Sequence record: LR746311 | Source of the DNA: Shigella phage vB_SsoM_113 | Length of the DNA: 64,000 nt | Direction: 5' to 3' (one strand) | Shown: positions 4,192-22,919 of the stretch, piece by piece | How the letters are laid out: every line of letters starts with the position of its first letter | Position numbering within the stretch: the first letter of the stretch is position 1 | Made by a program: the position numbers and the translations under genes | Notes under the pieces: model-generated | Database searches by the model: none | What the model saw: the letters and a program-made list of their open reading frames with translations, nothing else | Told to the model about the DNA's origin: nothing

Positions 4192-5779
<1,588 letters not shown>

Positions 5780-5782
5780 GCT

Positions 5783-5812: not shown

Positions 5813-5835
5813 AGTTTTACTGACATAACATGAGG
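5794..5835 (+). promoter_or_regulatory. RNA hairpin that would sequester the alc Shine-Dalgarno
   Basis: 13-bp stem incl. 2 G.U: 5794-5806 pairs 5823-5835; GAGGA at 5832-5836; loop holds -10 region. Confidence 0.5.
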
Positions 5836-5843
5836 ACTTTATG

Positions 5844-6691: not shown

Positions 6692-6987
6692 TTAAACTAT
6701 CAGCATTAATATTATCTATTGGTCTTCTAGTTGGTTGTTCGACAAAGCCTCTAGAAGTAAAGAAAGAAACAGTTCATCCTAATTGGCCAGTACAAATAAA
6801 GTCATATGATGAAGCTAAACTATCTTGGCAAGTTAAAGTTATTGATGGTAAAGCTTGGGTCGGTATGCCATTCGAAGATTCCCAGGAATTTCGTATTTGG
6901 CTCAATGATGTAAAACGATATGTACATGATCAGAAAACTATGATATGTTATTATCGTCAAGAGTTAAAAGAGGATAAATGTAAATGA
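6688..6987 (+). CDS. hypothetical lipoprotein (pseT.2-like)
   Basis: 99 aa; signal peptide plus lipobox-like LLVGC; ATGA overlap with previous ORF. Confidence 0.6.
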   Translation: MIKLSALILSIGLLVGCSTKPLEVKKETVHPNWPVQIKSYDEAKLSWQVKVIDGKAWVGMPFEDSQEFRIWLNDVKRYVHDQKTMICYYRQELKEDKCK

Positions 6988-7208
6988 TTTCATGGCATCA
7001 ATTTGAACATCTCAAAGGATTGATTTATGAATCCGAGATGGCTGCAATGATTTACGGACGCCAGATTCAGCGGTTAGAATCTTTACCTCCAACTAATGAT
7101 GTTTTATTAGCTCAATCACGTGCTAATCTTAAAAATGAATACCAAAATAAGTGGGGTAAAGCATCTAAAGACCTACATGATTATATTCAATCATTGGTTG
7201 AGAAATAA
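6984..7208 (+). CDS. hypothetical protein
   Basis: 74-aa ORF, ATG start, overlapping stop/start with neighbours. Confidence 0.5.
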   Translation: MISWHQFEHLKGLIYESEMAAMIYGRQIQRLESLPPTNDVLLAQSRANLKNEYQNKWGKASKDLHDYIQSLVEK

Positions 7209-7211
7209 TAA

Positions 7212-8436
<1,225 letters not shown>

Positions 8437-8437
<1 letters not shown>

Positions 8438-8634
8438 TGGCGTGGCATCATGAAACTTGGTCTATTGTTATTGTAAATAGTGGTTTAGTTGGTACTAGTG
8501 ATGGGCAATTTTGTGTATTCACTAGTGAAATCAGAGCTTGGGAGGAATGCCTTAAATTAAGAGAAAAGAATCCTGATGTTGAACTAACAGTAAAGAAAAC
8601 TAAACTGCCTTTACCATGGAAAACTTATGAATAA
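8437..8634 (+). CDS. hypothetical small protein
   Basis: ATG 8437 overlaps pseT stop (TAATG); ORF track start 8407 is non-ATG. Confidence 0.4.
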
Positions 8635-8827
8635 CATAGAAAAGATTTATCGGCTTTGTGATAAAATTGAAAAAGAAAAGAAATATCTATTTTGTTTATG
8701 GCCTATTGTTGATGGAAGAGTAGGCTTAGATGTTCTTGATTATGAAACAGAAGACAAAGTAGATGGTTCAACTTTTGATAATGCGTTGGATGTTATTGAT
8801 TGGCTTGAAGAAAATTATGTGAGGTAA
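8627..8827 (+). CDS. hypothetical small protein
   Basis: 66-aa ORF, ATG start. Confidence 0.45.
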   Translation: MNNIEKIYRLCDKIEKEKKYLFCLWPIVDGRVGLDVLDYETEDKVDGSTFDNALDVIDWLEENYVR

Positions 8828-8829
8828 AT

Positions 8830-9105
8830 ATGTTTCCGACTTATTCTAAAATCGTAGAAGTAGTGTTTAGCCAAATTATTGCTAATAATATGTTTGAAAA
8901 GCTTGATAACGCTGCCGAGCTTCGAATTCATGCTCAAGTGACTCATGTATTGAACACTTTGCTTCCAGACCAGGTGGATTCTATTGCCATTACGCTGTAT
9001 CCAGGTTCTGCGCATATCATTGTCGTATTCGGTCTTGATGCTGAGCTAGTCATCAAAGGCGATATTCGCTTTGAATCACAGACATCAGAATTCAAAGCAA
9101 TTTAA
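8830..9105 (+). CDS. hypothetical protein
   Basis: 91-aa ORF; ATG 8830 after GAGG. Confidence 0.5.
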   Translation: MFPTYSKIVEVVFSQIIANNMFEKLDNAAELRIHAQVTHVLNTLLPDQVDSIAITLYPGSAHIIVVFGLDAELVIKGDIRFESQTSEFKAI

Positions 9106-9107
9106 TA

Positions 9108-9137
9108 GTTTACTTTATGGTAGAGTTGTGATATTAT
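9108..9137 (+). promoter_or_regulatory. T4 early-type promoter
   Basis: GTTTAC 9108-9113, 18-nt spacer, TATTAT 9132-9137; upstream of ORF at 9168. Confidence 0.55.
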
Positions 9138-9167
9138 AGCTATACCAAAACAAATGAGGAAATTGAA

Positions 9168-9695
9168 ATGAGCGAATGGTTTGAAGAAGATAAGGTTTAT
9201 CGCTTTAAAGCTGGATATAAAGATATTTTTAATGAAACTTGCGGGGCTAATAAACGAATTGCCCAGTTTATTGGGGAAAATTCATTTAAAGTAAAAATAG
9301 ATCCTGCGAAAAATGTTATTAGCATTAAACGCGAAATTGATGACCGCTGGTATAAAGCTGTTGATGTAATGGGCGAATCCTATAAAGTTAGCCCGCTATT
9401 TTCAATTGCTTATATGTTAGAATATTCTTTTTTCGAAGAAGTTCAAAAAGATGATTCTGTCAGTAAATTTGAAATTAAAACTGATAAAGAAATTAAGTGG
9501 AAAGTAGTAGGTATTACTGGTTGTATGTTTTATATCTATGCTCAAACTGATACGAAGGAAGAAGCTAAAAAGAAAGCTCTAGAATATCTTGAAGAGTATG
9601 AAGAAGGCCCGGTAATGATTACACAAGATGCTGAATTAGTTTCTGTCAAATTAGTTAAAAACGTTGAAAGTAAGGAGCTGGGATCAACATGCTAA
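9168..9695 (+). CDS. hypothetical protein
   Basis: 175-aa ORF; ATG 9168 after GAGGA; early promoter upstream. Confidence 0.55.
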   Translation: MSEWFEEDKVYRFKAGYKDIFNETCGANKRIAQFIGENSFKVKIDPAKNVISIKREIDDRWYKAVDVMGESYKVSPLFSIAYMLEYSFFEEVQKDDSVSKFEIKTDKEIKWKVVGITGCMFYIYAQTDTKEEAKKKALEYLEEYEEGPVMITQDAELVSVKLVKNVESKELGSTC

Positions 9696-9925
9696 GTGAA
9701 AAACCAATTACTGTTAAAGAATTCCAAGAAAAAGTTAAACTATTTGCTCAGGAATTGGTAAATAAGGTTTCTGAACGATTTCCAGAAACATCGGTTCGCG
9801 TTATTACCGAAACTCCTCGTTCAGTATTAGTAATTGTGAATCCAGGTGATGGTGACCAAATAACACATCTCAAATTGGATTTTGATGGATTAGTTGAAGC
9901 ACAAAGGGTGTATGGCGTACTATGA
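9689..9925 (+). CDS. hypothetical protein
   Basis: 78-aa ORF after AAGGAG. Confidence 0.5.
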   Translation: MLSEKPITVKEFQEKVKLFAQELVNKVSERFPETSVRVITETPRSVLVIVNPGDGDQITHLKLDFDGLVEAQRVYGVL

Positions 9926-10260
9926 TGAATTTAACTGATATAATTGATAATTGTCTTGAAAATGATACTGGCGATCATAGAGCGCTTGACTCTGAAACAG
10001 CTCAGTTCATTAGAATAACTTTAATGAATGATACTCTAGTGAATAGTATTCATCCTTCTGTGTATGATGCTATTATTGTGACGAAGTATCCAGTTGAGCT
10101 TCACAAAAAGATGGTTGGCGCAATTTTTATTGATAAGAAAAACCGCTTTAAAGATGGGCAGAATATAATTAGTTCTGTTATTAAAAGTATAACTAAACTT
10201 CGTCACGAAATTTATCGTGTTGAAACTGCTAAATCTGCTTATCTGGTGATTATGAAATGA
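9922..10260 (+). CDS. hypothetical protein
   Basis: 112-aa ORF. Confidence 0.5.
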   Translation: MMNLTDIIDNCLENDTGDHRALDSETAQFIRITLMNDTLVNSIHPSVYDAIIVTKYPVELHKKMVGAIFIDKKNRFKDGQNIISSVIKSITKLRHEIYRVETAKSAYLVIMK

Positions 10261-10838
10261 AAGCGAGTACAGTACTTCAAATTGCATATTTAGTATCACA
10301 AGAATCAAAATGTTGCTCCTGGAAGGTAGGAGCAGTAATTGAAAAGAATGGACGTATTATTTCTACTGGATATAATGGTTCACCTGCAGGTGGTGTGAAC
10401 TGCTGTGATTATGCTGCTGAGCAAGGTTGGTTGCTGAATAAGCCTAAACATACTATCATTCAAGGTCATAAGCCTGAATGTGTATCATTTGGTTCAACTG
10501 ATCGTTTTGTCTTGGCGAAAGAACATCGTAGCGCGCACTCTGAATGGTCGTCTAAAAATGAAATTCATGCTGAACTAAATGCGATTTTGTTTGCTGCACG
10601 AAACGGTTCTTCAATTGAAGGTGCTACTATGTATGTAACACTTTCTCCTTGCCCAGATTGTGCAAAAGCAATAGCTCAATCTGGTATTAAAAAGCTGGTT
10701 TATTGTGAAACATACGATAAAAATAAACCTGGCTGGGATGATATTCTGCGAAATGCAGGTATTGAAGTGTTTAATGTTCCTAAGAAAAACTTGAATAAGT
10801 TAAACTGGGAAAATATCAACGAATTCTGTGGTGAATAA
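10257..10838 (+). CDS. cd: dCMP deaminase
   Basis: 193 aa; zinc-binding deaminase motifs HAELNA ... PCPDCA. Confidence 0.95.
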   Translation: MKASTVLQIAYLVSQESKCCSWKVGAVIEKNGRIISTGYNGSPAGGVNCCDYAAEQGWLLNKPKHTIIQGHKPECVSFGSTDRFVLAKEHRSAHSEWSSKNEIHAELNAILFAARNGSSIEGATMYVTLSPCPDCAKAIAQSGIKKLVYCETYDKNKPGWDDILRNAGIEVFNVPKKNLNKLNWENINEFCGE

Positions 10839-11074
10839 TGAAATTTCGTTTGGTACAGCTCACAGCAATTAGTTCTTATTCTACCGAGAACATTTCATTT
10901 GCTGTAGAGTATAAGAAATATTTTTTCTCTAGGTGGAAACAGTATTATAAATCAAACTGGGTTTGTATTGATAGACCGCATAGTTGGAAATCTGATTTAG
11001 AAAAATATCAAAAATTACTTTCCACTCTTAAAGAACGTGGAACAATTTATCATAAAACTGTAATAGGTAAATAA
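10838..11074 (+). CDS. hypothetical protein (31.2-like position)
   Basis: 78-aa ORF; TAATG overlap with cd. Confidence 0.5.
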   Translation: MKFRLVQLTAISSYSTENISFAVEYKKYFFSRWKQYYKSNWVCIDRPHSWKSDLEKYQKLLSTLKERGTIYHKTVIGK

Positions 11075-11383
11075 ATGAAACTGACGACTGAACAAAAAGT
11101 AGCAATTCGTGAAATTTTGAAAACTAAATTGTCCATGGGGGTTTCAAACGTAGTTTTTGAAAAGTCTGATGGTACTATTCGTACTATGAAAGGCACTCGT
11201 GATGCGGACTTTATGCCAACCATGCAAACTGGTAAATTGACTGAATCTACTCGGAAAGAATCTACTGATATGGTTCCAGTATTTGATGTTGAACTCGGTG
11301 CATGGCGAGGTTTTTCTATTGACAAATTGATTTCCGTTAATGGTATGAAAGTTGAGCATTTGCTTCAATTTATTGGTAAATAA
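11075..11383 (+). CDS. hypothetical protein (31.1-like position)
   Basis: 102-aa ORF. Confidence 0.55.
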   Translation: MKLTTEQKVAIREILKTKLSMGVSNVVFEKSDGTIRTMKGTRDADFMPTMQTGKLTESTRKESTDMVPVFDVELGAWRGFSIDKLISVNGMKVEHLLQFIGK

Positions 11384-11409
11384 ATGCTTTAAGAATTATT
11401 TGTTATTAT
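11384..11409 (+). promoter_or_regulatory. MotA-dependent middle promoter candidate for gene 31
   Basis: MotA-box-like aTGCTTtAa (TGCTT 11385-11389) about 19 nt upstream of TATTAT 11404-11409. Confidence 0.5.
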
Positions 11410-11439
11410 TAATTCATCTGTTAACAAAAAGGAAAAACG

Positions 11440-11775
11440 ATGTCTGAAGTACAACAGCTACCAATTCGTGCTGTCGGTGAATATGTGATTTTAGTTTCTG
11501 AACCTGCACAAGCCGGTGATGAAGAAGTTACAGAATCAGGGCTTATTATCGGTAAACGCGTCCAAGGCGAAGTTCCTGAACTGTGTGTAATTCACTCTGT
11601 TGGTCCTGATGTTCCTGAAGGTTTCTGTGAAGTTGGTGATTTGACTTCTCTTCCAGTTGGTCAAATTCGAAACGTTCCGCATCCTTTTGTAGCTCTGGGT
11701 CTTAAGCAGCCAAAAGAAATTAAACAAAAATTTGTTACCTGTCACTATAAAGCTATTCCGTGTCTTTATAAGTGA
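11440..11775 (+). CDS. 31: co-chaperonin GroES homologue for capsid folding
   Basis: 111 aa; recognised as T4 gp31; AAGGA upstream. Confidence 0.93.
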
Positions 11776-11783
11776 TATAAATA
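11776..11783 (+). promoter_or_regulatory. late promoter TATAAATA upstream of rIII
   Basis: Exact TATAAATA directly after gene 31 stop; about 140 nt upstream of rIII ATG. Confidence 0.55.
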
Positions 11784-11922
11784 ATAATATGAATTGGGTG
11801 TCGGAATAATAAGTTAACCGAACAATTCTATGTGGTAGTCTACAACTGAGAGATCTGTCGAAAGAAGATGAAATTCAGAAGAACGTGACTACCGAGTTTT
11901 AATCTCTAACGAGAATTTTTAA

Positions 11923-12171
11923 ATGATTAAACAATTACAACACGCTCTTGAACTGCAACGAAACGCATGGAATAATGGTCACGAAAACTATGGCGCATCT
12001 ATTGATGTTGAAGCCGAAGCTCTTGAAATCCTGCGTTATTTCAAACATCTGAATCCTGCTCAAACTGCATTAGCTGCTGAGCTTCAGGAAAAAGATGAAC
12101 TTAAGTATGCTAAGCCTCTGGCTTCTGCCGCACGAAAAGCAGTTCGTCACTTTGTGGTAACACTGAAGTAA
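11923..12171 (+). CDS. rIII: RIII lysis-inhibition accessory protein
   Basis: 82 aa; position after gene 31 and length match T4 rIII. Confidence 0.8.
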   Translation: MIKQLQHALELQRNAWNNGHENYGASIDVEAEALEILRYFKHLNPAQTALAAELQEKDELKYAKPLASAARKAVRHFVVTLK

Positions 12172-12567
12172 TTTATTGGAGATTCACTGCCTTAGTGTGA
12201 GCTAAAATCGAGGAGCCGTCGAACTGTCTGATTAATGATTTGCGAATCATTATAGTTTTAAGACCCCGGCAGTTTTACGGTGTACCTCTTGAATGTTATT
12301 CTTATAGCGGCAAGTGCATGCTACCCCGAGGTGATGGCCAATCGGGAGTACGCCTCAAGGCCTATATATCCATCAGTATATATCTTATCCTCGAGAAATC
12401 GAACCCGGAACCTTTAAGCTAACGGTGTGCAACAGATAAGAGTTATAAGTATGATGACGGGTTTATGGTTATCCTGTCGGTAAATACTCAAAACCTAAGT
12501 ACCCCCTTGAGGGCTTTCGCAGGCAATGCCAATAAGTCCTGCATTTTCATTTAAAAGAGAATTTATA
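12172..12567 (+). other. 396-bp non-coding, GC-enriched, hairpin-dense gap (candidate structured RNA or degraded insert)
   Basis: No ORF with an RBS; GC about 44% by hand count over 12181-12540; several hairpins (e.g. 12233-12252, 12216-12226/12270-12280, 12383-12389/12435-12441, 12456-12461/12473-12478). Confidence 0.4.
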
Positions 12568-12744
12568 ATGGCAAAACAAGCTAAAGCAAAGAAAGCAGTT
12601 GAAAAGAAAGTTGGTGATTCTAAACGCGCTGGTTACAAGCGTGGGTCGAACTCTCGTATCAATCAAACTGTTGAGAAGATCATGCGCCGAGCACGTGCGG
12701 TTCTTCGAGATGATGCTTCTCGTTTTGGTAAGCAGAAAGCATAA
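12568..12744 (+). CDS. small highly basic protein (30.9-like position)
   Basis: 58 aa from ATG 12568 (MAKQAKAKKAVEKK...); alternative in-frame ATG at 12526; followed by a strong terminator. Confidence 0.5.
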   Translation: MAKQAKAKKAVEKKVGDSKRAGYKRGSNSRINQTVEKIMRRARAVLRDDASRFGKQKA

Positions 12745-12749
12745 GTTGA

Positions 12750-12778
12750 GGACTCCTTCGGGAGTCCTTTTTTATTTT
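12750..12778 (+). terminator. rho-independent terminator
   Basis: GGACTCC-TTCG-GGAGTCC (12750-12767) followed by TTTTTTATTTT. Confidence 0.8.
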
Positions 12779-12797
12779 CCAAAGACTGCACAAAGTT

Positions 12798-12827
12798 GTT
12801 TACAGTATGGTTCCTTTGTGATAGTAT
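12798..12827 (+). promoter_or_regulatory. T4 early-type promoter with SD-sequestering hairpin
   Basis: GTTTAC 12798-12803, 18-nt spacer, TAGTAT 12822-12827; stem 12812-12819/12840-12847 overlaps AAGGAG 12843-12848. Confidence 0.45.
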
Positions 12828-12854
12828 TATCTTACACAAACAAAGGAGAATAAA

Positions 12855-13187
12855 ATGAAAACGATTAATCTGAACGCTGCAGTTAAAACTAAATGCTTCA
12901 ATGGTAAATATGATGAAACTATGTGGTTCTTAATGGCAGTTGAAGGTGATATTATTGAAGTAGAAACAACAGAAGGTATGGGAACAGATTTCACCTTTAC
13001 AATTCAAGTTCATAATTTCTTTACTGGTTGGATTTATGAATTGAATACAGTAATCGTTGGAAAAATTGAACAAAATGAATTGGGTGAATGGTATTATGTT
13101 ACAGCTCGCCAACGTGCCGAACGCTTAATTGAGAAGATGAAAAAAGTTGGTAAACTTGACATGCAGCACTGGAAAGTAGTAAAATAA
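12855..13187 (+). CDS. hypothetical protein
   Basis: 110-aa ORF; ATG 12855 after AAGGAG. Confidence 0.55.
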   Translation: MKTINLNAAVKTKCFNGKYDETMWFLMAVEGDIIEVETTEGMGTDFTFTIQVHNFFTGWIYELNTVIVGKIEQNELGEWYYVTARQRAERLIEKMKKVGKLDMQHWKVVK

Positions 13188-13189
13188 TT

Positions 13190-13229
13190 GTTTACTTTGG
13201 TACAGGATATGATATTATATACCTGTACC
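13190..13229 (+). promoter_or_regulatory. T4 early-type promoter with -10 inside a perfect 8-bp inverted repeat
   Basis: GTTTAC 13190-13195, 17-nt spacer, TATTAT 13213-13218; GGTACAGG 13199-13206 / CCTGTACC 13222-13229. Confidence 0.55.
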
Positions 13230-13254
13230 GCAATTAAACATCTTGGAGAATAAA

Positions 13255-13620
13255 ATGAACTACATCAACTTTGAACGTAAATATGTTTCTAACGGTATTG
13301 CAGGTTCTATTGATACTATCTGTCTTTGGAAACATCAAAATGGATCAGTATGCGAAATTGAACAGTATATGACTCCTAACTACGTTTATATGCGATTTGA
13401 AAATGGCATCACGGTTTCAATCACAATGGAAGGTTCCAACTTCAAAATCGCTTTGGATGATGATTTTCGTCAACGCGATTTAGGGACTCATCCTTGCTGG
13501 AATGGTGTTAATCGCAAGCTTCTGGTTAAAACTTGGATTCGTCATATTCTGAGTAACAGAGCTAAACCTGAGCATCTTGAAGCAATCTTTGATGTAGTTA
13601 TTAACGAATTTGATATTTAA
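13255..13620 (+). CDS. hypothetical protein
   Basis: ATG 13255 after GGAG; ORF track start 13243 is TTG. Confidence 0.55.
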   Translation: MNYINFERKYVSNGIAGSIDTICLWKHQNGSVCEIEQYMTPNYVYMRFENGITVSITMEGSNFKIALDDDFRQRDLGTHPCWNGVNRKLLVKTWIRHILSNRAKPEHLEAIFDVVINEFDI

Positions 13621-13630
13621 AATAAAATGA

Positions 13631-13644
13631 GGGGCTTCGGCCCC
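13631..13644 (+). other. stable tetraloop hairpin GGGGC-TTCG-GCCCC
   Basis: Between ORF stop 13620 and next SD; no U-tract. Confidence 0.45.
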
Positions 13645-13661
13645 TTACTGAGGAAAATACT

Positions 13662-13949
13662 ATGTTTATGACTACTTATTTTGACACCCGCAAAAATTTC
13701 TGTGAAGTGGTTTTCTCTAAGGCGCCTAAAGACCTTCCTGCTCATTTGCAACCTACCAGTGAATCAATTAAAAACTACGTTAATATAGTCTGCCCTTTGG
13801 AGTTCCGTATTGTAAATGGGTGCGATACTTTAGCTATCACTAAACTCAATCGTGAAATTGACATTGACCCTTCAATTGCGCGTGAAATTAATATTTCTGA
13901 TATTGGCGGCGGTAATGTTAAATCACATGGCTTTCAGATGAGATTTTAA
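13662..13949 (+). CDS. hypothetical protein
   Basis: 95-aa ORF; ATG after GAGGA. Confidence 0.5.
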   Translation: MFMTTYFDTRKNFCEVVFSKAPKDLPAHLQPTSESIKNYVNIVCPLEFRIVNGCDTLAITKLNREIDIDPSIAREINISDIGGGNVKSHGFQMRF

Positions 13950-13953
13950 TAAA

Positions 13954-14169
13954 ATGTTTAAGAAATTAATCCAGAAATTACTGGGCACGGAAATGGTTGA
14001 AGTTACTTATCGTGTGACTGATGTCTCTCCGCTCACTGAAGACCATTTAGAGCCATATATTATGACAATTAAAATGCTTAAATATGATGGCGGATTATCT
14101 GTTGAAGACCGTTTACCAAGTTATGGTCATTGGGCTGATATTGAAATTATAAGTATTGAAAATGTCTGA
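13954..14169 (+). CDS. hypothetical protein
   Basis: 71-aa ORF. Confidence 0.5.
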   Translation: MFKKLIQKLLGTEMVEVTYRVTDVSPLTEDHLEPYIMTIKMLKYDGGLSVEDRLPSYGHWADIEIISIENV

Positions 14170-14620
14170 GCTAGAGATAAGAAGCAATTTTAAATGGCCA
14201 TCATGCGCATTAAGTAATTTTGCCCAATGGCCTTTCGTTATGGATGGTATTCAATTTGGAGGTCTAGAAGGATTCCTCCAAGGGTGTAAGGTGAAAAATG
14301 TTGAACAACAACGTCGTATATTTGGGTTATCCGGGCTTGCCGCCCAACAGGCTGGAAGGTCTTATGCTAGAGCTCAGGACCGTGGCACGTTGTTCTGGCT
14401 TGGAGTTCCGTTTTCAAGATACTCCCCGGCGTGGAAAGAATTATACACAAATGCATATTTTGAAGCAGCGTTCCAAAACAAGGGCTTTCGCGATGCATTA
14501 CAAGCCTCGAAAGGAAAAGTTTTGAAGCACAGCATGGCTAGTGGTCTAACAAAAGATGATACAATACTAACCGAAGCTGAATTTATTGATGTGTTAAACC
14601 TATTAAGAGACTCTCTATGA
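14162..14620 (+). CDS. NADAR/YbiA-like (DUF1768) protein, putative ADP-ribose processing enzyme (30.3-like)
   Basis: ATG 14162 (track start 14156 is TTG); motif LSNFAQWPFVMDGIQF resembles E. coli YbiA FSNFAAWPIKVDG. Confidence 0.6.
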   Translation: MSELEIRSNFKWPSCALSNFAQWPFVMDGIQFGGLEGFLQGCKVKNVEQQRRIFGLSGLAAQQAGRSYARAQDRGTLFWLGVPFSRYSPAWKELYTNAYFEAAFQNKGFRDALQASKGKVLKHSMASGLTKDDTILTEAEFIDVLNLLRDSL

Positions 14621-15456
14621 AGCCTACTATTTTAACTGATATTGATGGAGTGTGTTTAAGCTGGCAATCAGGTCTTCCTTATTTTGCTCAGAAATATAAT
14701 CTTCCGTTAGAACATATTTTAAAAATGATCCAAGATGAGAAATTTATTTCTCCAGGTAAACTCTTTAATTGTGATGAAGAACTTGGTGTCAAGCTAATTG
14801 AAAAATACAATCGATCAGATTTTATTCGTTACTTGTCTCCATATAAAGATGCCTTGTGCGTAATTAACAAACTAAAAGAAGATTATAATTTTGTAGCTGT
14901 TACAGCGCTGGGTGATTCTATTGACGCTCTGTTGAATCGTCAATTTAATTTGAATGCTCTTTTTCCTGGTGCCTTCTCAGAAGTAATGATGTGTGGTCAT
15001 GATTCTTCAAAAGAAGAGTTGTTCAAAAAGGCAAAAGAGAAATATAACGTAATTTGTTATATTGACGATCTTGCTCACCACTGCGACCACGCGAGTGAAA
15101 TATTAAATGTTCCGGTTTATTGGATGGCTCGAGGAGAGCGTGACAATATTCCAAAAACTGCGCAGCGAGTTTATACATGGAATGATGTAGAAAATAAGTT
15201 TTTTTCGCCGAAGGAAAATAAAGAAAGTTTTGATAGTGAAAAAGCTATAAAAGATTTAATTGAGAAGATGGTTAAAAACGATTCTTTTCCTTGGAACACT
15301 ACCTGGAAAACGCCTGGATTTAATCCTTATAATCATCTATATCATCCATATCAGACACATCCGTTTCAGACATGGAACTACATTAAACCTGGTGGCATAG
15401 AGTATTTGTATAATAGACCTACTAGCGGTGATAATATTTTCCAAGGAGCATTCTAA
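14617..15456 (+). CDS. HAD-superfamily phosphatase/nucleotidase-like protein (30.2-like)
   Basis: 279 aa; N-terminal LTDIDGV (DxDG HAD motif I). Confidence 0.6.
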   Translation: MKPTILTDIDGVCLSWQSGLPYFAQKYNLPLEHILKMIQDEKFISPGKLFNCDEELGVKLIEKYNRSDFIRYLSPYKDALCVINKLKEDYNFVAVTALGDSIDALLNRQFNLNALFPGAFSEVMMCGHDSSKEELFKKAKEKYNVICYIDDLAHHCDHASEILNVPVYWMARGERDNIPKTAQRVYTWNDVENKFFSPKENKESFDSEKAIKDLIEKMVKNDSFPWNTTWKTPGFNPYNHLYHPYQTHPFQTWNYIKPGGIEYLYNRPTSGDNIFQGAF

Positions 15457-15725
15457 TGTTTGTTGTTCACACTATTTATGAAAATGAAGGTAATACTACA
15501 CGTGATTACGGTCACGTAAATCAATTTTTTAGATGTAATCCAGAATTCCGAGCTCAAAAAGACGAACGAATTTTTAAAAAATGTGTAGAGCAAGGTTTCA
15601 TTTACGTTAAGCACTGGATGCAAGGAAATAAAGTTAGAACTACATATCATAGGTCTTTGCCTGAGCTTAATGATGAATTGATTTATAATAGAGCTGTAAA
15701 CCAAACCTTGAAGGATGAGCAATGA
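15456..15725 (+). CDS. hypothetical protein (30.1-like)
   Basis: 89-aa ORF. Confidence 0.5.
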   Translation: MFVVHTIYENEGNTTRDYGHVNQFFRCNPEFRAQKDERIFKKCVEQGFIYVKHWMQGNKVRTTYHRSLPELNDELIYNRAVNQTLKDEQ

Positions 15726-17182
15726 TTCTTAAAATTCTGAATGAAATAGCATCTATTGGATCAACTAAGCAGAAGCAAGCAATTCTTGAAAAGAATAAAG
15801 ATAATGAATTGCTTAAACGAGTATATCGTCTGACTTATTCTCGTGGGTTACAGTATTATATCAAGAAATGGCCTAAACCTGGTATTGCTACCCAGAGTTT
15901 TGGAATGCTGACTATTACCGATATGCTTGACTTCATTGAATTCACGTTAGCTACTCGGAAATTGACTGGAAATGCTGCAATTGAGGAATTAACTGGATAT
16001 ATCACTGATGGTAAAAAGGATGATGTTGAAGTTTTGCGTCGAGTGATGATGCGAGATCTTGAATGCGGTGCTTCAGTATCTATTGCAAATAAAGTTTGGC
16101 CAGGTTTAATTCCTGAACAACCTCAAATGTTGGCAAGTTCTTATGATGAAAAAGGCATTAGTAAGAATATCAAATTTCCAGCCTTTGCACAGTTAAAAGC
16201 AGATGGAGCTCGGTGTTTTGCTGAAGTCCGAGGCGATGAATTAGATGATGTTCGTCTTTTATCACGAGCTGGTAATGAATATCTAGGATTAGATCTTCTT
16301 AAGGAAGAGTTAATCAAAATGACCGCTGAAGCTCGCCAGATTCATCCAGAAGGCGTGTTAATTGATGGCGAATTGGTATACCATGAGCAAGTTGAAAAAG
16401 AGCCAGAAGGCCTAGATTTTCTTTTTGATGCTCCTGAAATCAGTAAAGCTAAAGAGTTTTCCGAAGTAGCTGAATCACGTACTGCTTCTAATGGAATTGC
16501 CAATAAATCTTTAAAGGGAACTATTTCAGAAAAAGAAGCTCAATGTATGAAGTTTCAGGTCTGGGATTATGTCCCGTTAGTAGAAATATACGGTCTTCCA
16601 GCATTTCGTTTGAAGTATGATGTACGTTTTTCTAAACTAGAACAAATGACATCAGGATATGATAAAGTAATTTTAATTGAAAACCAGATAGTAAATAACC
16701 TAGATGAAGCTAAGGTAATTTATAAAAAGTATATTGACCAAGGTCTTGAAGGTATTATTCTCAAAAATATCGATGGATTATGGGAAAATTCTCGTTCAAA
16801 AAATCTCTATAAATTTAAAGAAGTAATTGATGTTGATTTAAAAATTGTAGGAATTTATCCTCACCGTAAAGACCCTACTAAAGCAGGTGGATTTATTCTT
16901 GAATCAGAGTGTGGAAAAATTAAAGTAAATGCTGGGTCAGGCTTAAAAGATAAAGCCGGTGTAAAATCGCATGAACTTGACCGTACTCGCATTATGGAAA
17001 ACCAAAATTATTATATTGGAAAAATTCTAGAGTGCGAATGCAATGGTTGGTTAAAATCTGATGGCCGCACTGATTACGTTAAATTATTTCTTCCGATTGC
17101 GATTCGTTTACGTGAAGATAAAACTAAAGCTAATACATTCGAGGATGTATTTGGTGATTTTCATGAGGTAACTGGTCTATGA
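15722..17182 (+). CDS. 30: ATP-dependent DNA ligase
   Basis: 486 aa; KADGAR adenylylation motif; recognised as T4 DNA ligase. Confidence 0.96.
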   Translation: MILKILNEIASIGSTKQKQAILEKNKDNELLKRVYRLTYSRGLQYYIKKWPKPGIATQSFGMLTITDMLDFIEFTLATRKLTGNAAIEELTGYITDGKKDDVEVLRRVMMRDLECGASVSIANKVWPGLIPEQPQMLASSYDEKGISKNIKFPAFAQLKADGARCFAEVRGDELDDVRLLSRAGNEYLGLDLLKEELIKMTAEARQIHPEGVLIDGELVYHEQVEKEPEGLDFLFDAPEISKAKEFSEVAESRTASNGIANKSLKGTISEKEAQCMKFQVWDYVPLVEIYGLPAFRLKYDVRFSKLEQMTSGYDKVILIENQIVNNLDEAKVIYKKYIDQGLEGIILKNIDGLWENSRSKNLYKFKEVIDVDLKIVGIYPHRKDPTKAGGFILESECGKIKVNAGSGLKDKAGVKSHELDRTRIMENQNYYIGKILECECNGWLKSDGRTDYVKLFLPIAIRLREDKTKANTFEDVFGDFHEVTGL

Positions 17183-17367
17183 AAGCTTACTTAGAAACAA
17201 TTGTCGTGGCTCAAAAAGAAGGTGGAGATGTTTCTACTTCTGTATCACAAATTATGATTGAATTTATAGATGCATATGCTTATAATAAATTCACAGAAAC
17301 ATTTGATACCTATGAAAAAGGTCCAAAGTTTGAAATATATCGTACTCTCTTACCAATAGATTATTAA
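17179..17367 (+). CDS. hypothetical small protein
   Basis: 62-aa ORF overlapping ligase stop; followed by hairpin and late promoter. Confidence 0.45.
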   Translation: MKAYLETIVVAQKEGGDVSTSVSQIMIEFIDAYAYNKFTETFDTYEKGPKFEIYRTLLPIDY

Positions 17368-17383
17368 AGGCCTTCGGGCCTTT
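17366..17383 (+). terminator. hairpin AAAGGCC-TTCG-GGCCTTT with U-rich tail
   Basis: Follows 62-aa ORF stop; AATTTTA downstream. Confidence 0.5.
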
Positions 17384-17388
17384 AATTT

Positions 17389-17396
17389 TATAAATA
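17389..17396 (+). promoter_or_regulatory. late promoter TATAAATA upstream of alt
   Basis: Exact TATAAATA 24 nt upstream of alt ATG. Confidence 0.6.
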
Positions 17397-17419
17397 GAAT
17401 AAACACTAGAGAGGATATG

Positions 17420-19513
17420 ATGGAACTCATTACAGAATTATTTGACGAAGATACTACTCTTCCGATTACAAACTTAAATCCAAAGAAGAAAATACCGCAA
17501 ATTTTTTCAGTTCATGTTGATGACGCAATTGAACAACCAGGTTTTCGTTTATGTACCTATACATCTGGAGGTGATACTAATCGCGATTTAAAAATGGGCG
17601 ATAAAATGATGCATATTGTTCCTTTTACATTAACTGCTAAAGGTTCAATTGCTAAATTAAAAGGTCTCGGTCCAAGCCCAATTAATTACATCAATTCAGT
17701 TTTTACTGTTGCGATGCAGACGATGCGTCAGTATAAAATTGATGCATGTATGCTCCGTATTCTTAAGTCTAAAACTGCTGGTCAAGCTCGTCAAATTCAA
17801 CTTATTGCTGATAGACTTATCCGTAGTCGTTCAGGTGGCAGATACGTCCTTCTTAAGGAACTCTGGGATTATGATAAAAAGTATGCATATATTCTTATAC
17901 ATCGCAAAAATGTATCATTAGAAGACATTCCAGGAGTTCCAGAAATTAGTACCGAGCTCTTTACTAAAGTTGAATCGAAGGTCGGTGATGTTTATATCAA
18001 TAAAGATACTGGAGCTCAAGTAACTAAAAATGAGGCAATTGCTGCATCTATTGCGCAAGAAAATGATAAACGTTCTGACCAAGCGGTAATCGTTAAAGTT
18101 AAAATTTCCCGTAGAGCAATTGCACAAAGTCAGTCATTGGAATCTTCTAGATTTGAAAGTGAATTATTCCAGAAGTATGAATCTACCGCAGCTAATTTCA
18201 ATAAACCTGCTACAGCTCCTTTAATTCCCGAAGCAGAAGAAATGAAGCTTGGAATTAATTCATTAGCTTCTAAAACTAAGGCAGCAAAAATTATTGCTGA
18301 AGGAACTGCAGATGAACTTCATTATGACTATAAATTCTTTTCAAAAAGTGAGGTTAATGAAGTTTCTGAAAAAATTAAAGATGTAATTCTTAATGCGATT
18401 AAAAATGAACCAACTACTTCAATAAAATGTTTAGAGAAATACGCAGCAGCTGTTAATCAATTATTTGAAGAATATAAAGATAACTGGCTTGATAAACATA
18501 ATAAAACTCGTAAAGGACAAACAGATGAAGTCTGGGAAGAAATAACTAAAAATTCCTGGAACGCAGCAAAAACTAAATTCCTCAAACGAATGATTTATAG
18601 CTTTTCCGGAATTGGTGCAGGTCCAATGATTGATATTACTATTGCCCGTGATGGTTCTAAATATACTCCATCACAAAAGCGCGGCATTAGAGAGTATTGT
18701 GGTTCAGGATATACTGACATCAATAATCTTCTTTTGGGTCGTTACAATCCAGAACGATATGATGTAATGAGTGAAAAAGAAATTGAATCTGCTATAAATA
18801 ACTTAGATTCAGCTTTTGAAAACGGTGACCGTATACCAGAAGGCATTACAGTTTATCGTGCTCAAAGCATGACTGCTCCTATATACGAAGCATTAGTTAA
18901 AAATAAAGTATTCTATTTCAGAAATTTTGTATCTACTTCTTTAACTCCTATCATTTTTGGACGTTTTGGAATTACACATGCTGGTATTGGTCTTTTAGAA
19001 CCAGAAGCTCGTAATGAATTGACAGTTGATAAAAATGAAGAAGGAATAACTATTAATCCAAACGAAATAAGAGCATATAAAGAAAATCCTGAATACGTTA
19101 AAGTTCAAATAGGATGGGCAATTGATGGAGCTCATAAAGTTAATGTTGTATATCCAGGAAGTCTCGGAATAGCAACAGAAGCTGAAGTTATTCTACCACG
19201 CGGATTGATGGTCAAAGTTAATAAAATAACTGATGCTTCTAATAATGACGGAACAACATCTAATAATACAAAACTCATTCAAGCTGAAGTTATGACTACG
19301 GAAGAACTCACCGAATCAGTAATTTATGACGGTGATCGTCTAATGGAAACTGGTGAAGTAGTTGCAATGACAGGTGATATTGAAATAGAAGACAGAGTTG
19401 ATTTTGCATCATTTGTTTCATCAAATGTTAAACAAAAAGTAGAATCATCTCTTGGAATTATTGCGTCTTGCATAGATATTGCAAACATGCCTTACAAGTT
19501 CGTTCAAGGATAA
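17420..19513 (+). CDS. alt: Alt-family ADP-ribosyltransferase (positional alt)
   Basis: 697 aa from ATG 17420 (MELITELF...); C-terminal R/S/E ART elements (YRAQ ... FVSTSL ... EAEVILPRG). Confidence 0.88.
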   Translation: MELITELFDEDTTLPITNLNPKKKIPQIFSVHVDDAIEQPGFRLCTYTSGGDTNRDLKMGDKMMHIVPFTLTAKGSIAKLKGLGPSPINYINSVFTVAMQTMRQYKIDACMLRILKSKTAGQARQIQLIADRLIRSRSGGRYVLLKELWDYDKKYAYILIHRKNVSLEDIPGVPEISTELFTKVESKVGDVYINKDTGAQVTKNEAIAASIAQENDKRSDQAVIVKVKISRRAIAQSQSLESSRFESELFQKYESTAANFNKPATAPLIPEAEEMKLGINSLASKTKAAKIIAEGTADELHYDYKFFSKSEVNEVSEKIKDVILNAIKNEPTTSIKCLEKYAAAVNQLFEEYKDNWLDKHNKTRKGQTDEVWEEITKNSWNAAKTKFLKRMIYSFSGIGAGPMIDITIARDGSKYTPSQKRGIREYCGSGYTDINNLLLGRYNPERYDVMSEKEIESAINNLDSAFENGDRIPEGITVYRAQSMTAPIYEALVKNKVFYFRNFVSTSLTPIIFGRFGITHAGIGLLEPEARNELTVDKNEEGITINPNEIRAYKENPEYVKVQIGWAIDGAHKVNVVYPGSLGIATEAEVILPRGLMVKVNKITDASNNDGTTSNNTKLIQAEVMTTEELTESVIYDGDRLMETGEVVAMTGDIEIEDRVDFASFVSSNVKQKVESSLGIIASCIDIANMPYKFVQG

Positions 19514-19516
19514 ATC

Positions 19517-21574
19517 ATGGAACTTATTACAGAATTATTTGACGGCGCTTCGGCGCCGGTTGTTAACTTAAATCCTAAGCATAAAATACCTCAAATTTTT
19601 GCTATTCAAGCCGGTGAAGAAAGCGTGCTTCCTGGATTTAGATTTTGTACATACACCTCTGGTGGTGATACAAATAAAAACGTTAAGCCAGGCGATAAAA
19701 TGATGCATATCGTAATGATAGGTGTCAATGAGAAACTATCATTAGTTAAACTTAAAAACTTGGGTGGAAATCCAATTGGTGTCATTAATGCCGTTTTTGA
19801 TACTGCTCTTCAAACAATGAAACAGTATAAAATTGACGCATGCCTATTCCGCGTACTAAAGAGTAAAACAAATGGCGCAGCTCGTCAAATGCAAGTTATT
19901 GCTGACCGTTTAGTACGTACTAAAGGAGCAGGTCGATATGTTCTTTTAAAAGAAATCTGGGATTATGATAAAAAGTATGCATATATTATGGTTTACCGTA
20001 AAAATGCCAATTTAGAAGACATTCCAGGTGTACCTCCTATTTCAACTGAGTTATTCACAAAAGTTGAATCAAAGGTTGGTGATGTTTATGTAGATGTTAA
20101 AACAGGTAATGCTGTTCCTAAAGCCGTTGCTGTGGCTGCTTCTATTGCTTTAGAAAATGATAAGCGCACGGATCAAGCTGTTATTCAGAAAACTAAAATT
20201 AGCCGTCGATTAGCAGCACAAGCTCAATATTCTACTGTCGATGCTTCACTTCAGGGTGATAGCTTCGCTGCCAAGAAATATCAAGAGTTTGAATCTAAAG
20301 TTCCGGTATATAAAGCAGAAGGACCAATGAACTCTGGTGTTATTCAGATTGGTTCCAACTTCAGCAAAGGAGCTATCGGTGGTATGAGAAGTGCTTCTCG
20401 TTTTAAATCTAACGATTATGAACTAGAAAGCTTCCGAAATCATATTGCATTGGCCCATGCACGTTTACGTGATCCGTCTATCAGACTGCAGAGCGATATA
20501 ACATATCAAGGTTCTCAAGAATATTTAAAGAATAAAGAATTTTTTGATTATAAAACCGATAAAATTTTGAGCGATCTCGCTGACATTAATATTTCTAATA
20601 GCTTTGATGTTATTAAGAAAATTGTCAATGATTTAGTTAAAGGTTCTAAAGCCGCACCAGACGAAAAGGTAGCTATTATTCAATTTGTCATGAATAGCAT
20701 TTATAAATTGATTAATGAATCTGCTGCTCAGGCATATGAATACGCAAGCACCGAAGTAACTCCAAAAGGATTAACTCAGTCTGAGTCTGATGTAATTGAA
20801 GATTATTGTGCAGATTCATATGTTGAAATGAACTCGTTCCTCTTGGGTAAACCAGATTCTACCCGTGAAGAATACATGGAACGAGCTATTAAACACATCG
20901 AGACGCTGGATTCTGCATTCGCCAAAGGATCAGTTCTTCCTCCAGGAACTACGCTTTATCGTGGGCAAGAAGTTACTTTTAAAACTTTACGTCATAATAT
21001 TGAAAATAAAATGTTCTATTTTAAGAACTTCGTATCAACATCGCTTAAACCAAATATCTTCGGTGAGCATGGTAAAAACTATATGGCTCTAGATGATTCA
21101 GGTGCAGTATTTTCTGGTGAAGGAGAAGGTTCTGTTGATGCTGAAGATTTAATGCATATGGGTAGTCATTCTGCATATGCTAATGAAGATGCTGAAGCTA
21201 GCGTAGGTATGGTAATTAAAGGGGCTGAGCGAATCAAAGTTATCGTTCCAGGTCATTTATCAGGATTTCCATCAGAAGCTGAAGTTATTCTACCACGTGG
21301 AATTTTGTTAAAGATTAATAAAGTAAGCACGTACATGATGAAAGAAACTGCTTATAACAAGTATCTAATCGAAGGCACAATCGTTCCTCCTTCTGAACAA
21401 TTAGAAGAATCAGTATATGATGGCGATCATCTAATGGAAACTGGTGAAGTTCGTCCAATGGCTAGGTTTAATCAATTCCTTGTAGAAGAATCAAAAGAAG
21501 AGGAAAACGAAGTTTCTCAAATCTTGGCTTCTTTGGTTAACATCAATGGAATGTCTAAAAAGTTCAAGATGTAG
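19517..21574 (+). CDS. second Alt-family ADP-ribosyltransferase (tandem paralogue)
   Basis: 685 aa (MELITELFDG...); conserved N-terminal region and C-terminal YRGQ ... FVSTSL ... EAEVILPRG; middle region diverged. Confidence 0.85.
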   Translation: MELITELFDGASAPVVNLNPKHKIPQIFAIQAGEESVLPGFRFCTYTSGGDTNKNVKPGDKMMHIVMIGVNEKLSLVKLKNLGGNPIGVINAVFDTALQTMKQYKIDACLFRVLKSKTNGAARQMQVIADRLVRTKGAGRYVLLKEIWDYDKKYAYIMVYRKNANLEDIPGVPPISTELFTKVESKVGDVYVDVKTGNAVPKAVAVAASIALENDKRTDQAVIQKTKISRRLAAQAQYSTVDASLQGDSFAAKKYQEFESKVPVYKAEGPMNSGVIQIGSNFSKGAIGGMRSASRFKSNDYELESFRNHIALAHARLRDPSIRLQSDITYQGSQEYLKNKEFFDYKTDKILSDLADINISNSFDVIKKIVNDLVKGSKAAPDEKVAIIQFVMNSIYKLINESAAQAYEYASTEVTPKGLTQSESDVIEDYCADSYVEMNSFLLGKPDSTREEYMERAIKHIETLDSAFAKGSVLPPGTTLYRGQEVTFKTLRHNIENKMFYFKNFVSTSLKPNIFGEHGKNYMALDDSGAVFSGEGEGSVDAEDLMHMGSHSAYANEDAEASVGMVIKGAERIKVIVPGHLSGFPSEAEVILPRGILLKINKVSTYMMKETAYNKYLIEGTIVPPSEQLEESVYDGDHLMETGEVRPMARFNQFLVEESKEEENEVSQILASLVNINGMSKKFKM

Positions 21575-21603
21575 TTTACAAGTCCATCGTGTTGTGTTAT
21601 AAT
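21574..21603 (+). promoter_or_regulatory. T4 early-type promoter, copy 2 of repeated cassette
   Basis: GTTTAC 21574-21579, 18-nt spacer, TATAAT 21598-21603. Confidence 0.55.
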
Positions 21604-21626
21604 AATCTTACTGACATAACATGAGG
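21584..21626 (+). promoter_or_regulatory. RNA hairpin that would sequester SD of ORF at 21635
   Basis: 5' arm 21584-21597 (one bulged A) pairs 21614-21626; GAGGA 21623-21627. Confidence 0.45.
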
Positions 21627-21634
21627 AACACAAA

Positions 21635-21925
21635 ATGAAATCTTCTTTACGCTTTTTAGGTCAAGAACTTATAGTTGAAGGCGTTATTCCTGCTGATAAT
21701 GCTTTTAATGAAGCAGTTTATGATGAATTTATCAAAATTTTTGGAATAGATAAAAAGTTCGGAATTTTTCCTTCTGAAAATTTTTCAAAGCCAGAGCAGA
21801 CTGAAAGCATTTTCCAAGGTGTAGTAACAGGTAAATTCGAGTCAGAAGCTCCGGTAAAAATTGAAGTTTATATTGAAGACAGTTTAGTTGCTTCAGTTGC
21901 TGCTTTTATTTCATTCCGTAAATAA
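21635..21925 (+). CDS. hypothetical protein
   Basis: 96-aa ORF after GAGGA; preceded by second copy of promoter/hairpin cassette. Confidence 0.5.
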   Translation: MKSSLRFLGQELIVEGVIPADNAFNEAVYDEFIKIFGIDKKFGIFPSENFSKPEQTESIFQGVVTGKFESEAPVKIEVYIEDSLVASVAAFISFRK

Positions 21926-21930
21926 AAATA

Positions 21931-21950
21931 TGGGGACCAAAAGGTCCCCA
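21931..21950. terminator. bidirectional hairpin terminator between convergent ORF (21635..21925) and gene 54
   Basis: TGGGGACC-AAAA-GGTCCCCA flanked by T-rich sequence on both strands. Confidence 0.6.
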
Positions 21951-21953
21951 TTG

Positions 21954-22919
21954 TTATATTGCTCCTAATATTTTACTTTGCGAATTGACAATTCCCGTCA
22001 TAGTATTAATGTTTGAAATGCTTCCAGCAGTTCCCCCTAATCTACTAAGTCGTGAAAGCGAATTAGATAATCCAGTAACACCTCCACTATTTCCGAGAAC
22101 GCTTTGAATGCCATTTATAGCAGCAGATTCAAGCCACTCAAGCGCAGCTTGTCTATCAACTGACCCAGCTTGCATGACTCTATACGCAAAAGTAACATCA
22201 AATGTAGTTATTTGGTTATCTCCATCATATGATAACTCAGGAGCGCTCACTGACACTGGAATGCATCCGGTGAACATCACTGCAGTATGAGGTAATCCAT
22301 TACGAGCATGAAGATTAACCTGAATATCTGCCTCGACATCTTGTGGCAAAGCGCGCAGTCCAGTTACTGGGTCTTGAACAGCGTTAACCCAGTCTTGCAT
22401 TGCACGATAGTTACAAGCTTCTGAATCCATTCTAAATGAAATAACCAAAGGGTCTAATTCTCTCCCAGTTATACGAATATTAGGAGAGTTATAGTTCCAG
22501 TCAGTTTCATAGGATAATCTATTCTCTGGCATTTTTACAGAATATATCATCAATCCAGACGAGTTATATGCCATGTTAAAGAAGTCAATTAAATATGTAC
22601 CGACGGTAAATGAGCCCAATAAACTTTGAACTGTACGTTGACTCATGGCACCAATAAGATATTTACTAACCCCTGATTTTCTTATCAGTTTTTGTGTGCC
22701 AGCAGTAATTAGCGTGGTAATTCCCTGATTAATATCGCCTTGAGACAATCCTAACCAGTCTGAATTTAAACCCAAATTATTATAAGAAAAGTTGCTAATT
22801 GAACTTATCAACGAAGAGCTTTTAGTTGATGGAGTTGTCGCAAAAACACAGCTAAACATATTATTACGTTGAAAATCTGCGTTTATTGCTTGATTATTAA
22901 ATTCCTCTAAAGAATACAT
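21954..22919 (-). CDS. 54: baseplate tail-tube initiator
   Basis: 321 aa; position and size match T4 gp54. Confidence 0.88.
   Translation of the reverse strand: MYSLEEFNNQAINADFQRNNMFSCVFATTPSTKSSSLISSISNFSYNNLGLNSDWLGLSQGDINQGITTLITAGTQKLIRKSGVSKYLIGAMSQRTVQSLLGSFTVGTYLIDFFNMAYNSSGLMIYSVKMPENRLSYETDWNYNSPNIRITGRELDPLVISFRMDSEACNYRAMQDWVNAVQDPVTGLRALPQDVEADIQVNLHARNGLPHTAVMFTGCIPVSVSAPELSYDGDNQITTFDVTFAYRVMQAGSVDRQAALEWLESAAINGIQSVLGNSGGVTGLSNSLSRLSRLGGTAGSISNINTMTGIVNSQSKILGAI

Follow-up and report, generated by a model that had tools for sequence, protein, structure and literature searches.

A 54-bp repeat at two gene junctions

The window analysed here is a stretch of 64,000 nucleotides from Shigella phage vB_SsoM_113 (sequence record LR746311). 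It belongs to a Tequatrovirus (T4-like) genome, and the regions considered below are 97-98% identical to those of many E. coli and Shigella phages. On its + strand, which is the early-transcribed strand, a 54-bp cassette is present in two copies. Copy 1 (5783-5836) lies at the rnlA-alc junction and comprises an early promoter, the 5' arm of a predicted RNA hairpin, a leader and a Shine-Dalgarno (SD) sequence, and copy 2 (21574-21627) lies at the junction of an alt paralogue and alt.-3. Upstream of copy 1 is rnlA (gene 63, 4655-5779) and downstream of it is alc (5844-6347), which encodes an inhibitor of host transcription; both genes were assigned from the list of open reading frames (ORFs) and the annotation of relatives. 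Copy 2 is preceded by the second of two full-length alt paralogues (19517-21574) and followed by an alt.-3 homologue of 96 amino acids (21635-21925), all of these genes being encoded on the + strand. In T4, alc is an early gene whose product stops the transcription of cytosine-containing host DNA early in infection (PMC2988021), and alt.-3 is uncharacterised and dispensable (PMC11618068).

Both cassettes fit tightly between their neighbouring genes. The rnlA stop codon occupies 5777-5779 and copy 1 begins 4 nt later, and copy 2 shares its first base with the end of the alt paralogue's stop codon. At the other end, the SD sequence GAGGA (5832-5836 in copy 1, 21623-21627 in copy 2) is followed by the start codons of alc at 5844 and alt.-3 at 21635. 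An earlier note on this DNA had placed the stop of a large gene at or just before the cassette and the SD sequence of the next ORF at its end, and this arrangement was confirmed for both copies. The alc gene has two in-frame ATGs, at 5841 and 5844, and public records choose either of them. Because 11 records (UFV06 type) carry ATAATG, which abolishes the first ATG, we take 5844, which lies 7 nt past GAGGA, as the alc start.

Pairwise alignment of 5783-5836 with 21574-21627 gave an ungapped match at 49 of 54 positions, in agreement with the roughly 49 of 54 that the earlier note had obtained by hand. The note had also assigned one difference to the 5' arm and four toward the top of the structure, and had read a perfect TATAAT at the -10 position of copy 2, all of which was borne out. 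Cassette position 13 (C>A between copies) is the bulged base in the 5' arm, positions 27 and 29 distinguish the copy 1 -10 hexamer TACAGT from TATAAT in copy 2, and positions 32 and 34, which also differ, lie in the apical region. The likeness runs exactly from GTTTAC to GAGGA rather than being confined to the GTTTAC box, and the flanking DNA is unrelated. A search of the 64-kb window with the complete cassette and with either half (up to 3 mismatches for the halves) returned these two sites only, and a cassette match was found in none of 100 dinucleotide-preserving shuffles. Chance similarity was rejected as an account of the repeat.

Each copy contains an early promoter sequence

A promoter scan showed that each copy is close to the T4 early promoter consensus, with the form TTTACA-N17-TAYART and TGn, and that its spacer holds an anti-SD sequence. 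The copy 1 promoter (5784-5812, + strand) consists of TTTACA at 5784-5789, a 17-nt spacer and TACAGT at 5807-5812; the copy 2 promoter (21575-21603, + strand) consists of TTTACA at 21575-21580, a 17-nt spacer and TATAAT at 21598-21603; and TG precedes the -10 in both. The copy 2 promoter matches the consensus at 11 of 12 positions and has the TG; it reaches the joint top score over 3000-22900 and is the sole 11/12 site with TG in that interval. From the usual 7-nt distance, transcription is predicted to start near A5819 in copy 1 and near A21610 in copy 2, which correspond to about 136,300 (-) and 123,057 (-) in T4 (NC_000866.4). Both cassettes precede, in the same orientation, a downstream gene on the early strand (alc or alt.-3), and a motif search found no TATAAATA late promoter within or near either of them.

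The promoter component is already annotated in public records: NC_055724 (Yersinia phage fPS-65) labels both sites "predicted early promoter", and MH355584 (JB75) labels the alc site "promoter". The published T4 early promoter consensus, GTTTAC ... TGTG(A/G)TA(C/T)(A/T)AT (quoted in PMC1524935 and bioRxiv 10.1101/2024.04.04.588121), accounts for the -35 element, the spacing, the GT-rich extended -10, the -10 hexamer and the location before the early gene alc. However, it fails to explain why the whole spacer and the 18-nt leader are conserved, why two sites 16 kb apart are identical at 49-54 of 54 positions, or why the spacer and the leader covary.

The promoter spacer can pair with the SD sequence

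In RNA transcribed from upstream, both cassettes are predicted to fold into a hairpin whose 5' arm is the promoter spacer AGUCCCUCGUGUUGUGU, whose top carries the -10 sequence and whose 3' arm is the leader ACAUAACAUGAGGA, SD sequence included. The copy 1 hairpin (5789-5839, + strand) has its 5' arm at 5789-5806, an apical stem-loop with the -10 at 5809-5822 and its 3' arm, including the SD sequence, at 5823-5839. The copy 2 hairpin (21583-21627, + strand) has its 5' arm at 21583-21597 and its 3' arm at 21614-21627, ending in GAGGA. Promoter scan and folding thus support the proposal, made in the earlier note, of a promoter with -35 GTTTAC and a -10 in the "loop" that lies inside an inverted repeat ending at the SD sequence. 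Copy 1 folds with 22 pairs and one bulge at a minimum free energy (MFE) of -25.7 kcal/mol (z -5.6), a stability reached by none of 200 shuffles. In copy 2 the lower 14-17 pairs are formed (MFE -17.8 kcal/mol, z -2.7), and the apical stem has been lost because the -10 there is a perfect TATAAT. Both hairpins still form in 121-nt contexts. No covariance model of Rfam 15 matched over either cassette at E <= 1.

The two kinds of RNA that could carry the SD sequence differ markedly in the computed folds. In upstream-initiated RNA, the SD sequence is paired with a probability of 0.95-1.00. An RNA that starts about 7 nt past the -10 lacks the 5' arm and folds at only 0 to -1.4 kcal/mol; its predicted start lies beyond both the apical loop and the 5' arm and precedes the 3' arm of the SD helix by 4 nt. 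We computed the cost of opening the ribosome-binding site (RBS, SD sequence through AUG), which replaced the mean pairing probability of positions -14 to -5 as the measure across genes, the latter being too noisy in 160-nt contexts. In read-through RNA this cost is 14.8 kcal/mol for alc and 12.1 kcal/mol for alt.-3, the top two values among 16 + strand genes computed (1.2-10.1 for the others), and in own-promoter RNA it is 3.7 and 1.9 kcal/mol, respectively.

We consider it probable that the cassette is an early promoter whose spacer doubles as an anti-SD strand and seals the RBS in read-through RNA. Host sigma-70 RNA polymerase would start about 7 nt past the -10, near 5819 and 21610, and the resulting RNA would begin with ACUGACAUAACAUGAGGA. 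Because this own-promoter RNA would lack the 5' arm, its SD sequence would be free and alc or alt.-3 could be translated. RNA arriving from upstream would include the spacer AGUCCCUCGUGUUGUGU, which is expected to pair with ACAUAACAUGAGGA(CU) and to lock the SD sequence in a helix of 14-22 bp. For both genes, synthesis of the product is predicted to be essentially restricted to the time immediately after infection, while the gene's own early promoter fires. The T4 reviews consulted give no account of how Alc synthesis stays confined to early infection; a spacer that hides the RBS in all other transcripts would be a simple, protein-free tie of translation to one promoter class.

Possible sources of read-through RNA

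Upstream promoters and terminator-like sites were located for both copies. A late promoter, TATAAATA, lies at 17389-17396, 20 nt ahead of the first alt paralogue. From 17389, the next terminator-like site after a gene end is a bidirectional terminator-like hairpin at 21930-21951, downstream of alt.-3, which closes the alt/alt.-3 unit; a weaker 6-bp terminator-like match is found inside the second alt gene (alt-B) at 20122-20137. Given this placement of terminators, late alt mRNA should run through copy 2. Before rnlA, a middle-type promoter with a MotA box and TACTAT is present at 4601-4628 (TGCTT at 4603-4607, TACTAT at 4623-4628), and the terminator scan found no terminator-like site from this promoter to alc. 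We infer that middle-mode or delayed-early rnlA RNA would read into copy 1 and late alt RNA into copy 2.

Several further features of the alt region were observed. The two full-length alt (ADP-ribosyltransferase) paralogues, at 17417-19513 and 19517-21574, stand in tandem and are about 73-84% identical over the listed repeated stretches; T4, by comparison, has one alt and the remnants alt.-1 and alt.-2. A terminator-like hairpin at about 17366-17388 (AAAGGCCTTCGGGCCTTT followed by a T-run) adjoins the late promoter TATAAATA at 17389 and, judging from its position, would shield alt from early read-through. The hairpin at 21930-21951 is a perfect, G+C-rich 9-bp stem between the convergent genes alt.-3 and 54.

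The hairpin is maintained across lineages at rnlA-alc

The rnlA-alc junction was compared in ten lineages besides Tequatrovirus. Seven of them, all in the Tevenvirinae (Karamvirus, Roskildevirus, Dhakavirus, Kagamiyamavirus and three Klebsiella phages), have the same design, with a spacer of 58-72 nt: GTTTACA comes first, CCUC or CUCC lies within the promoter spacer, the loop carries the -10, and the 3' arm closes with GAGG or GGAG. Helix lengths are 11-16 pairs, with energies of -12 to -26 kcal/mol, and the helix sequences vary by lineage (CCAUUUGGUU/AACCAAAUGG, CCUCAUCAG/CUGAUGAGG and CCUCGUUUGUU/AACAAACGAGG). Among the exceptions, Acinetobacter phage Ac42 has a different gene upstream and Aeromonas phage 31 has a different hairpin.

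The constancy of the SD sequence and its complement bears on the possibility that the hairpin serves the upstream mRNA, as a 3' stabiliser or as a processing site (e.g. for RNase III, given a helix of about 20 bp), with burial of the SD sequence as a side effect. Such a role would fit a hairpin that directly follows the stop codons of long genes and that in copy 1 has 22 pairs and one bulge, and the stem-loops of the promoter-early stem-loop (PeSL) cassettes of T4-like phages have been described as terminators (PMC2839356). Yet in the seven other lineages the SD sequence is always in the 3' arm and CCUC or CUCC always in the 5' arm, which neither a stabiliser nor an RNase III site requires, and the helix length ranges from 11 to 16 pairs. 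Moreover, the terminator scan called neither cassette terminator-like, and no U-tract follows either of them, the tails being CUUUAUGAUG in copy 1 and ACACAAAAUG in copy 2. We regard a function in the upstream mRNA as quite unlikely, and reading the hairpin as an intrinsic terminator was rejected on the absence of the U-tract.

RNAalifold, run on a MAFFT alignment of the intergenic regions of 12 lineages, returned no consensus structure because the helices sit in different registers. In place of an alignment consensus, each sequence was folded separately, pairs were tabulated with the SD sequence as the anchor, and native hairpins were compared with chimeric ones in a permutation test. In the pair table, eight of the first nine inward positions have two or three pair types, and the double changes include G-C to A-U and G-C to C-G. 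When 5' and 3' halves were swapped among lineages, the native combinations folded at a mean of -17.7 kcal/mol versus -11.9 +/- 1.0 kcal/mol for mismatched partners, and none of 7419 derangements reached the native mean. Strong selection for structure, one of two explanations offered in the earlier note, is thus supported, since the hairpin has been kept by compensatory change across genera. The cassette is a real, strongly conserved regulatory module, and the alc version is ancestral in Tevenvirinae.

Variation within Tequatrovirus also indicates which nucleic acid is under selection. The 5'-arm variants C11U, C15U and G16A turn a pair into G.U or a G.U into A-U; C12A and C13A fall at the bulge, and A8C at the very base of the stem. 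Since the helix has G.U pairs and its variants replace C by U where the partner is G, or G by A where the partner is U, the + strand RNA appears to be the selected form. The same pattern argues against the view that we are dealing with a merely duplicated promoter, in which the dyad has no RNA role or acts at the DNA level as a cruciform or as an operator for a factor that shuts off early promoters. The shut-off of T4 early promoters is incompletely understood (PMC3014915), and several other early promoters in the window have -10-centred dyads that do not all reach the SD sequence, both of which leave room for a DNA-level role. However, complementarity has been retained between genera despite divergent sequence, which marks a folded nucleic acid rather than a protein-binding site, and the G.U pairs and the C>U and G>A changes, tolerated in the + strand RNA, would be mismatched in a cruciform or on the opposite strand. 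A DNA-level role would also leave the anti-SD content of the spacer unexplained, and we consider it very improbable.

The alt.-3 copy as a probable transplant from alc

With 81-nt queries, copy 2 and its surroundings matched 1116 places in 618 phage records, and copy 1 and its surroundings matched 995 places in 499 records, which have an identical or near-identical sequence at rnlA-alc. Nearly all Tequatrovirus records contain exactly two places, at fixed gene junctions (~500 phage records). The copy number in relatives, on which the earlier note had made its interpretation depend, is thus two per genome with these queries, and both copies are found in related phages. Few T4-type contigs turned up in IMG/VR (42 stretches, mostly unrelated sequence matched by chance) and in the metagenome contigs scanned (8 stretches), and single-protein locus searches found close relatives only. 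Among 14 genomes in which both copies were read, their within-genome identity is 49-54 of 54: the T4 copies agree at 53 of 54 positions, and the copies are identical in phage UFV06 and in one uncultured contig.

The alt/alt.-3 junction was compared in Dhakavirus JS98, HY126 (an E. coli phage whose record gives no genus), a Klebsiella phage, Mosugukvirus PM2, Karamvirus KMB17 and three uncultured contigs. All of these junctions have an early promoter at the same place, and in most of them the alt stop codon overlaps it, as TAGTTTACA. The promoter itself is of another type; except in Mosugukvirus PM2, its spacer contains a mini-hairpin (CCACAAGGAUGUGG and variants). The -35 box is common to both kinds of alt.-3 promoter; all those of the other type carry an SD sequence at the place of ACATGAGGA, and several (e.g. 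JS98, HY126) also share ...ACATGAGGA. The identity between the two Tequatrovirus copies stops exactly at the boxes that both promoter kinds have in common.

Because the alt.-3 promoter of other lineages differs in type, the alt.-3 cassette can be read as a Tequatrovirus-specific transplant of the alc cassette. Read most simply, the comparison means that in the Tequatrovirus lineage the inner part of the alt.-3 promoter, from the -35 box to the ACATGAGGA box, was overwritten by the alc cassette, probably by ectopic recombination or gene conversion. Exchange between the copies seems to continue. The linked variant T11/T15/A16 has alt.-3 flanks in 26 records and alc flanks in 8; A29/A32, typical of alt.-3, also occurs with alc flanks in 11 records; and C27, typical of alc, also occurs at alt.-3 in ACG-C40. 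Recurrent mutation is possible for the single sites and unlikely for the linked triple T11/T15/A16.

These data refine the alternative posed in the earlier note, between a mobile promoter cassette and strong selection for structure. Both parts hold in a modified form, since the alt.-3 copy replaced a promoter of another type in one lineage and the two loci share polymorphisms, but the notion of a freely transposing element does not stand. A transposable element was rejected: there are two fixed copies, no flanking repeats and no associated gene. The pair of copies offers a clean natural example of a promoter-and-leader module that was moved before another gene and kept similar by exchange, and such a transplanted module bears on the rewiring of expression in T4-like genomes.

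A partial relative of the cassette was found in Shigella phage JK36 (Mosigvirus), at 1485-1543 of the stretch examined. There, the half of the alt.-3 cassette from the -10 to the ATG (TATAGTAGTC.TACT...AACATGAGGAACACAAAATG) stands before an unrelated small ORF near ndd. The 5' half of this site differs and forms a GTAGGA/TCCTAC stem around the -10. The JK36 site suggests that leader modules are common to different genera and loci.

Translational block or translational coupling

Several observations weigh against a sealed RBS as the function of the cassette. In Mosigvirus, alc has no SD-pairing hairpin (-6.5 kcal/mol) and has a small hairpin inside the spacer instead, from which the design appears dispensable. 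At alt.-3, the promoter spacer pairs with the SD sequence in none of the other lineages sampled, and copy 2 of this window, which lacks the apical stem, is the second-weakest variant seen. One change that disrupts the helix was observed among the Tequatrovirus variants, G18A in a single phage (11B_SA_NWU), which breaks a G-C pair. Part of the 5' arm, the TGTG before the -10, is conserved in any case through the T4 early promoter consensus. Finally, no more than 4-11 nt separate the upstream stop codon from the 5' arm, and the stem may be opened by a ribosome that terminates there, with coupled translation of the two genes in place of a block.

This last point leads to a distinct model. The hairpin would still close the RBS in read-through RNA, but a ribosome that finishes rnlA or alt would melt the lowest part of the stem, the downstream gene would be translated in proportion to the upstream gene, and the internal promoter would merely add early expression. 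In all lineages the upstream gene ends right next to or within the -35 box (TAGTTTACA, TAACCGTTTACA, TAAGCTGTTTACA), so that the 5' arm, about 4-11 nt past the stop, would be within or near the footprint of the terminating ribosome, and the pairs that hold the SD sequence are the lowest pairs of the stem. However, the packing of stop codon and -35 box is equally tight at the alt.-3 promoters of the other type, where the SD sequence is unpaired; genome compaction alone therefore explains the proximity. In addition, a terminating ribosome would free only the lowest few of 14-22 pairs, and the documented T4 precedents are blocks, not couplers (PMC3014915). We consider coupling unlikely and continue to favour a spacer that acts as an anti-SD strand and blocks translation of read-through RNA.

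Comparison with known T4 systems

RBS-sequestering hairpins with an internal promoter have been described for the T4 genes e, soc, 49 and I-TevI, and also for I-TevII, I-TevIII, segB and mobE of Aeh1 (PMC3014915, PMC2988022). As in T4 e, soc, 49 and I-TevI, the SD sequence of the cassettes is predicted to lie in a stable helix in upstream transcripts, and the promoter lies inside the hairpin-coding DNA, so that its own transcript would lack the 5' arm and be translatable. The predicted effect on opening cost, about 10 kcal/mol, is similar in size to that associated with the reported, roughly 100-fold effect in T4 gene e. The control proposed here for alc thus mirrors that of lysozyme (e). In all of the listed genes the internal promoter is a late one (gp55, TATAAATA) and translation is delayed until late in infection, whereas the promoters of the cassettes are of the early, sigma-70 type. 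A second difference is that the promoter spacer of the cassette is itself the anti-SD strand; the timing is predicted to be reversed, with translation limited to the immediate-early period. Neither alc nor alt.-3 is among the hairpin genes listed in PMC3014915 and PMC2988022, and an earlier notice in the older T4 promoter literature is possible. The hairpin logic is an early-promoter example of a known T4 principle; it is not a member of the late-gene set and does not constitute a new type of system.

The cassettes also resemble the PeSL cassettes of T4-like phages (Arbiol et al. 2010, PMC2839356; Comeau et al. 2014, PMC4122927). Both are compact, conserved modules of early promoter, SD sequence and ATG that are repeated within a genome, and the PST/T4 PeSL consensus TTTACW-N17-TAYWAT fits both copies except for the fourth base of the copy 1 -10 (TACAGT). 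PeSLs have been implicated in recombination with one another, with crossovers mapped between the -10 and the SD sequence or ATG; for the present cassette, the polymorphisms shared by the two loci suggest exchange. In contrast, the stem-loop of a PeSL precedes the -35 and serves as the terminator of the preceding gene, whereas the only stem here encloses the -10 and ends in the SD sequence; the distance from the upstream stop codon to GTTTAC is 0-4 nt. PeSLs are numerous in each genome and flank variable ORFans and indels in hyperplastic regions, whereas the present cassette has two copies at conserved gene junctions, and a PeSL-like mini-circle formed between them would excise 16 kb including the DNA ligase gene (30). 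Assignment to the PeSLs in the strict sense was rejected on the place of the stem.

Similar sites in the window

Early promoters of the GTTTAC type with -10-centred dyads are also present on the + strand at 12798-12857, 9108-9170 and 13190-13260. At 12798, CCUUUGUG pairs with CACAAAGG, covering the SD sequence AAGGAG, and its opening cost, 10.1 kcal/mol, ranks third among the 16 genes. The site at 13190 has a stem of 8-14 bp (GGTACAGG...CCTGTACC) that stops short of the SD sequence, and pairing at 9108 is weak.

It is conceivable, although on balance doubtful, that T-even early-promoter cassettes in general are "self-insulating" units, in which the spacer is selected as an anti-SD strand and the units are copied and homogenised by ectopic gene conversion anchored on the -35 and SD boxes. 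If so, a general, undescribed layer of regulation would be exemplified by alc (throughout Tevenvirinae), alt.-3 of Tequatrovirus and the promoter at 12798, and this layer would sharpen the immediate-early class and let promoters swap as modules.

A different spacer motif was observed at several of the promoters discussed above. The spacer of the middle-type promoter at 4601-4628 contains a mini-hairpin, CCACATGGAGTGTGG, and the same motif, as CCACAAGGATGTGG and variants, occurs in the spacer of the alt.-3 early promoter of four other lineages and in that of the Mosigvirus alc promoter. From its recurrence at these sites, the mini-hairpin motif CCACATGGAGTGTGG/CCACAAGGATGTGG looks like a second recurrent promoter-core module.

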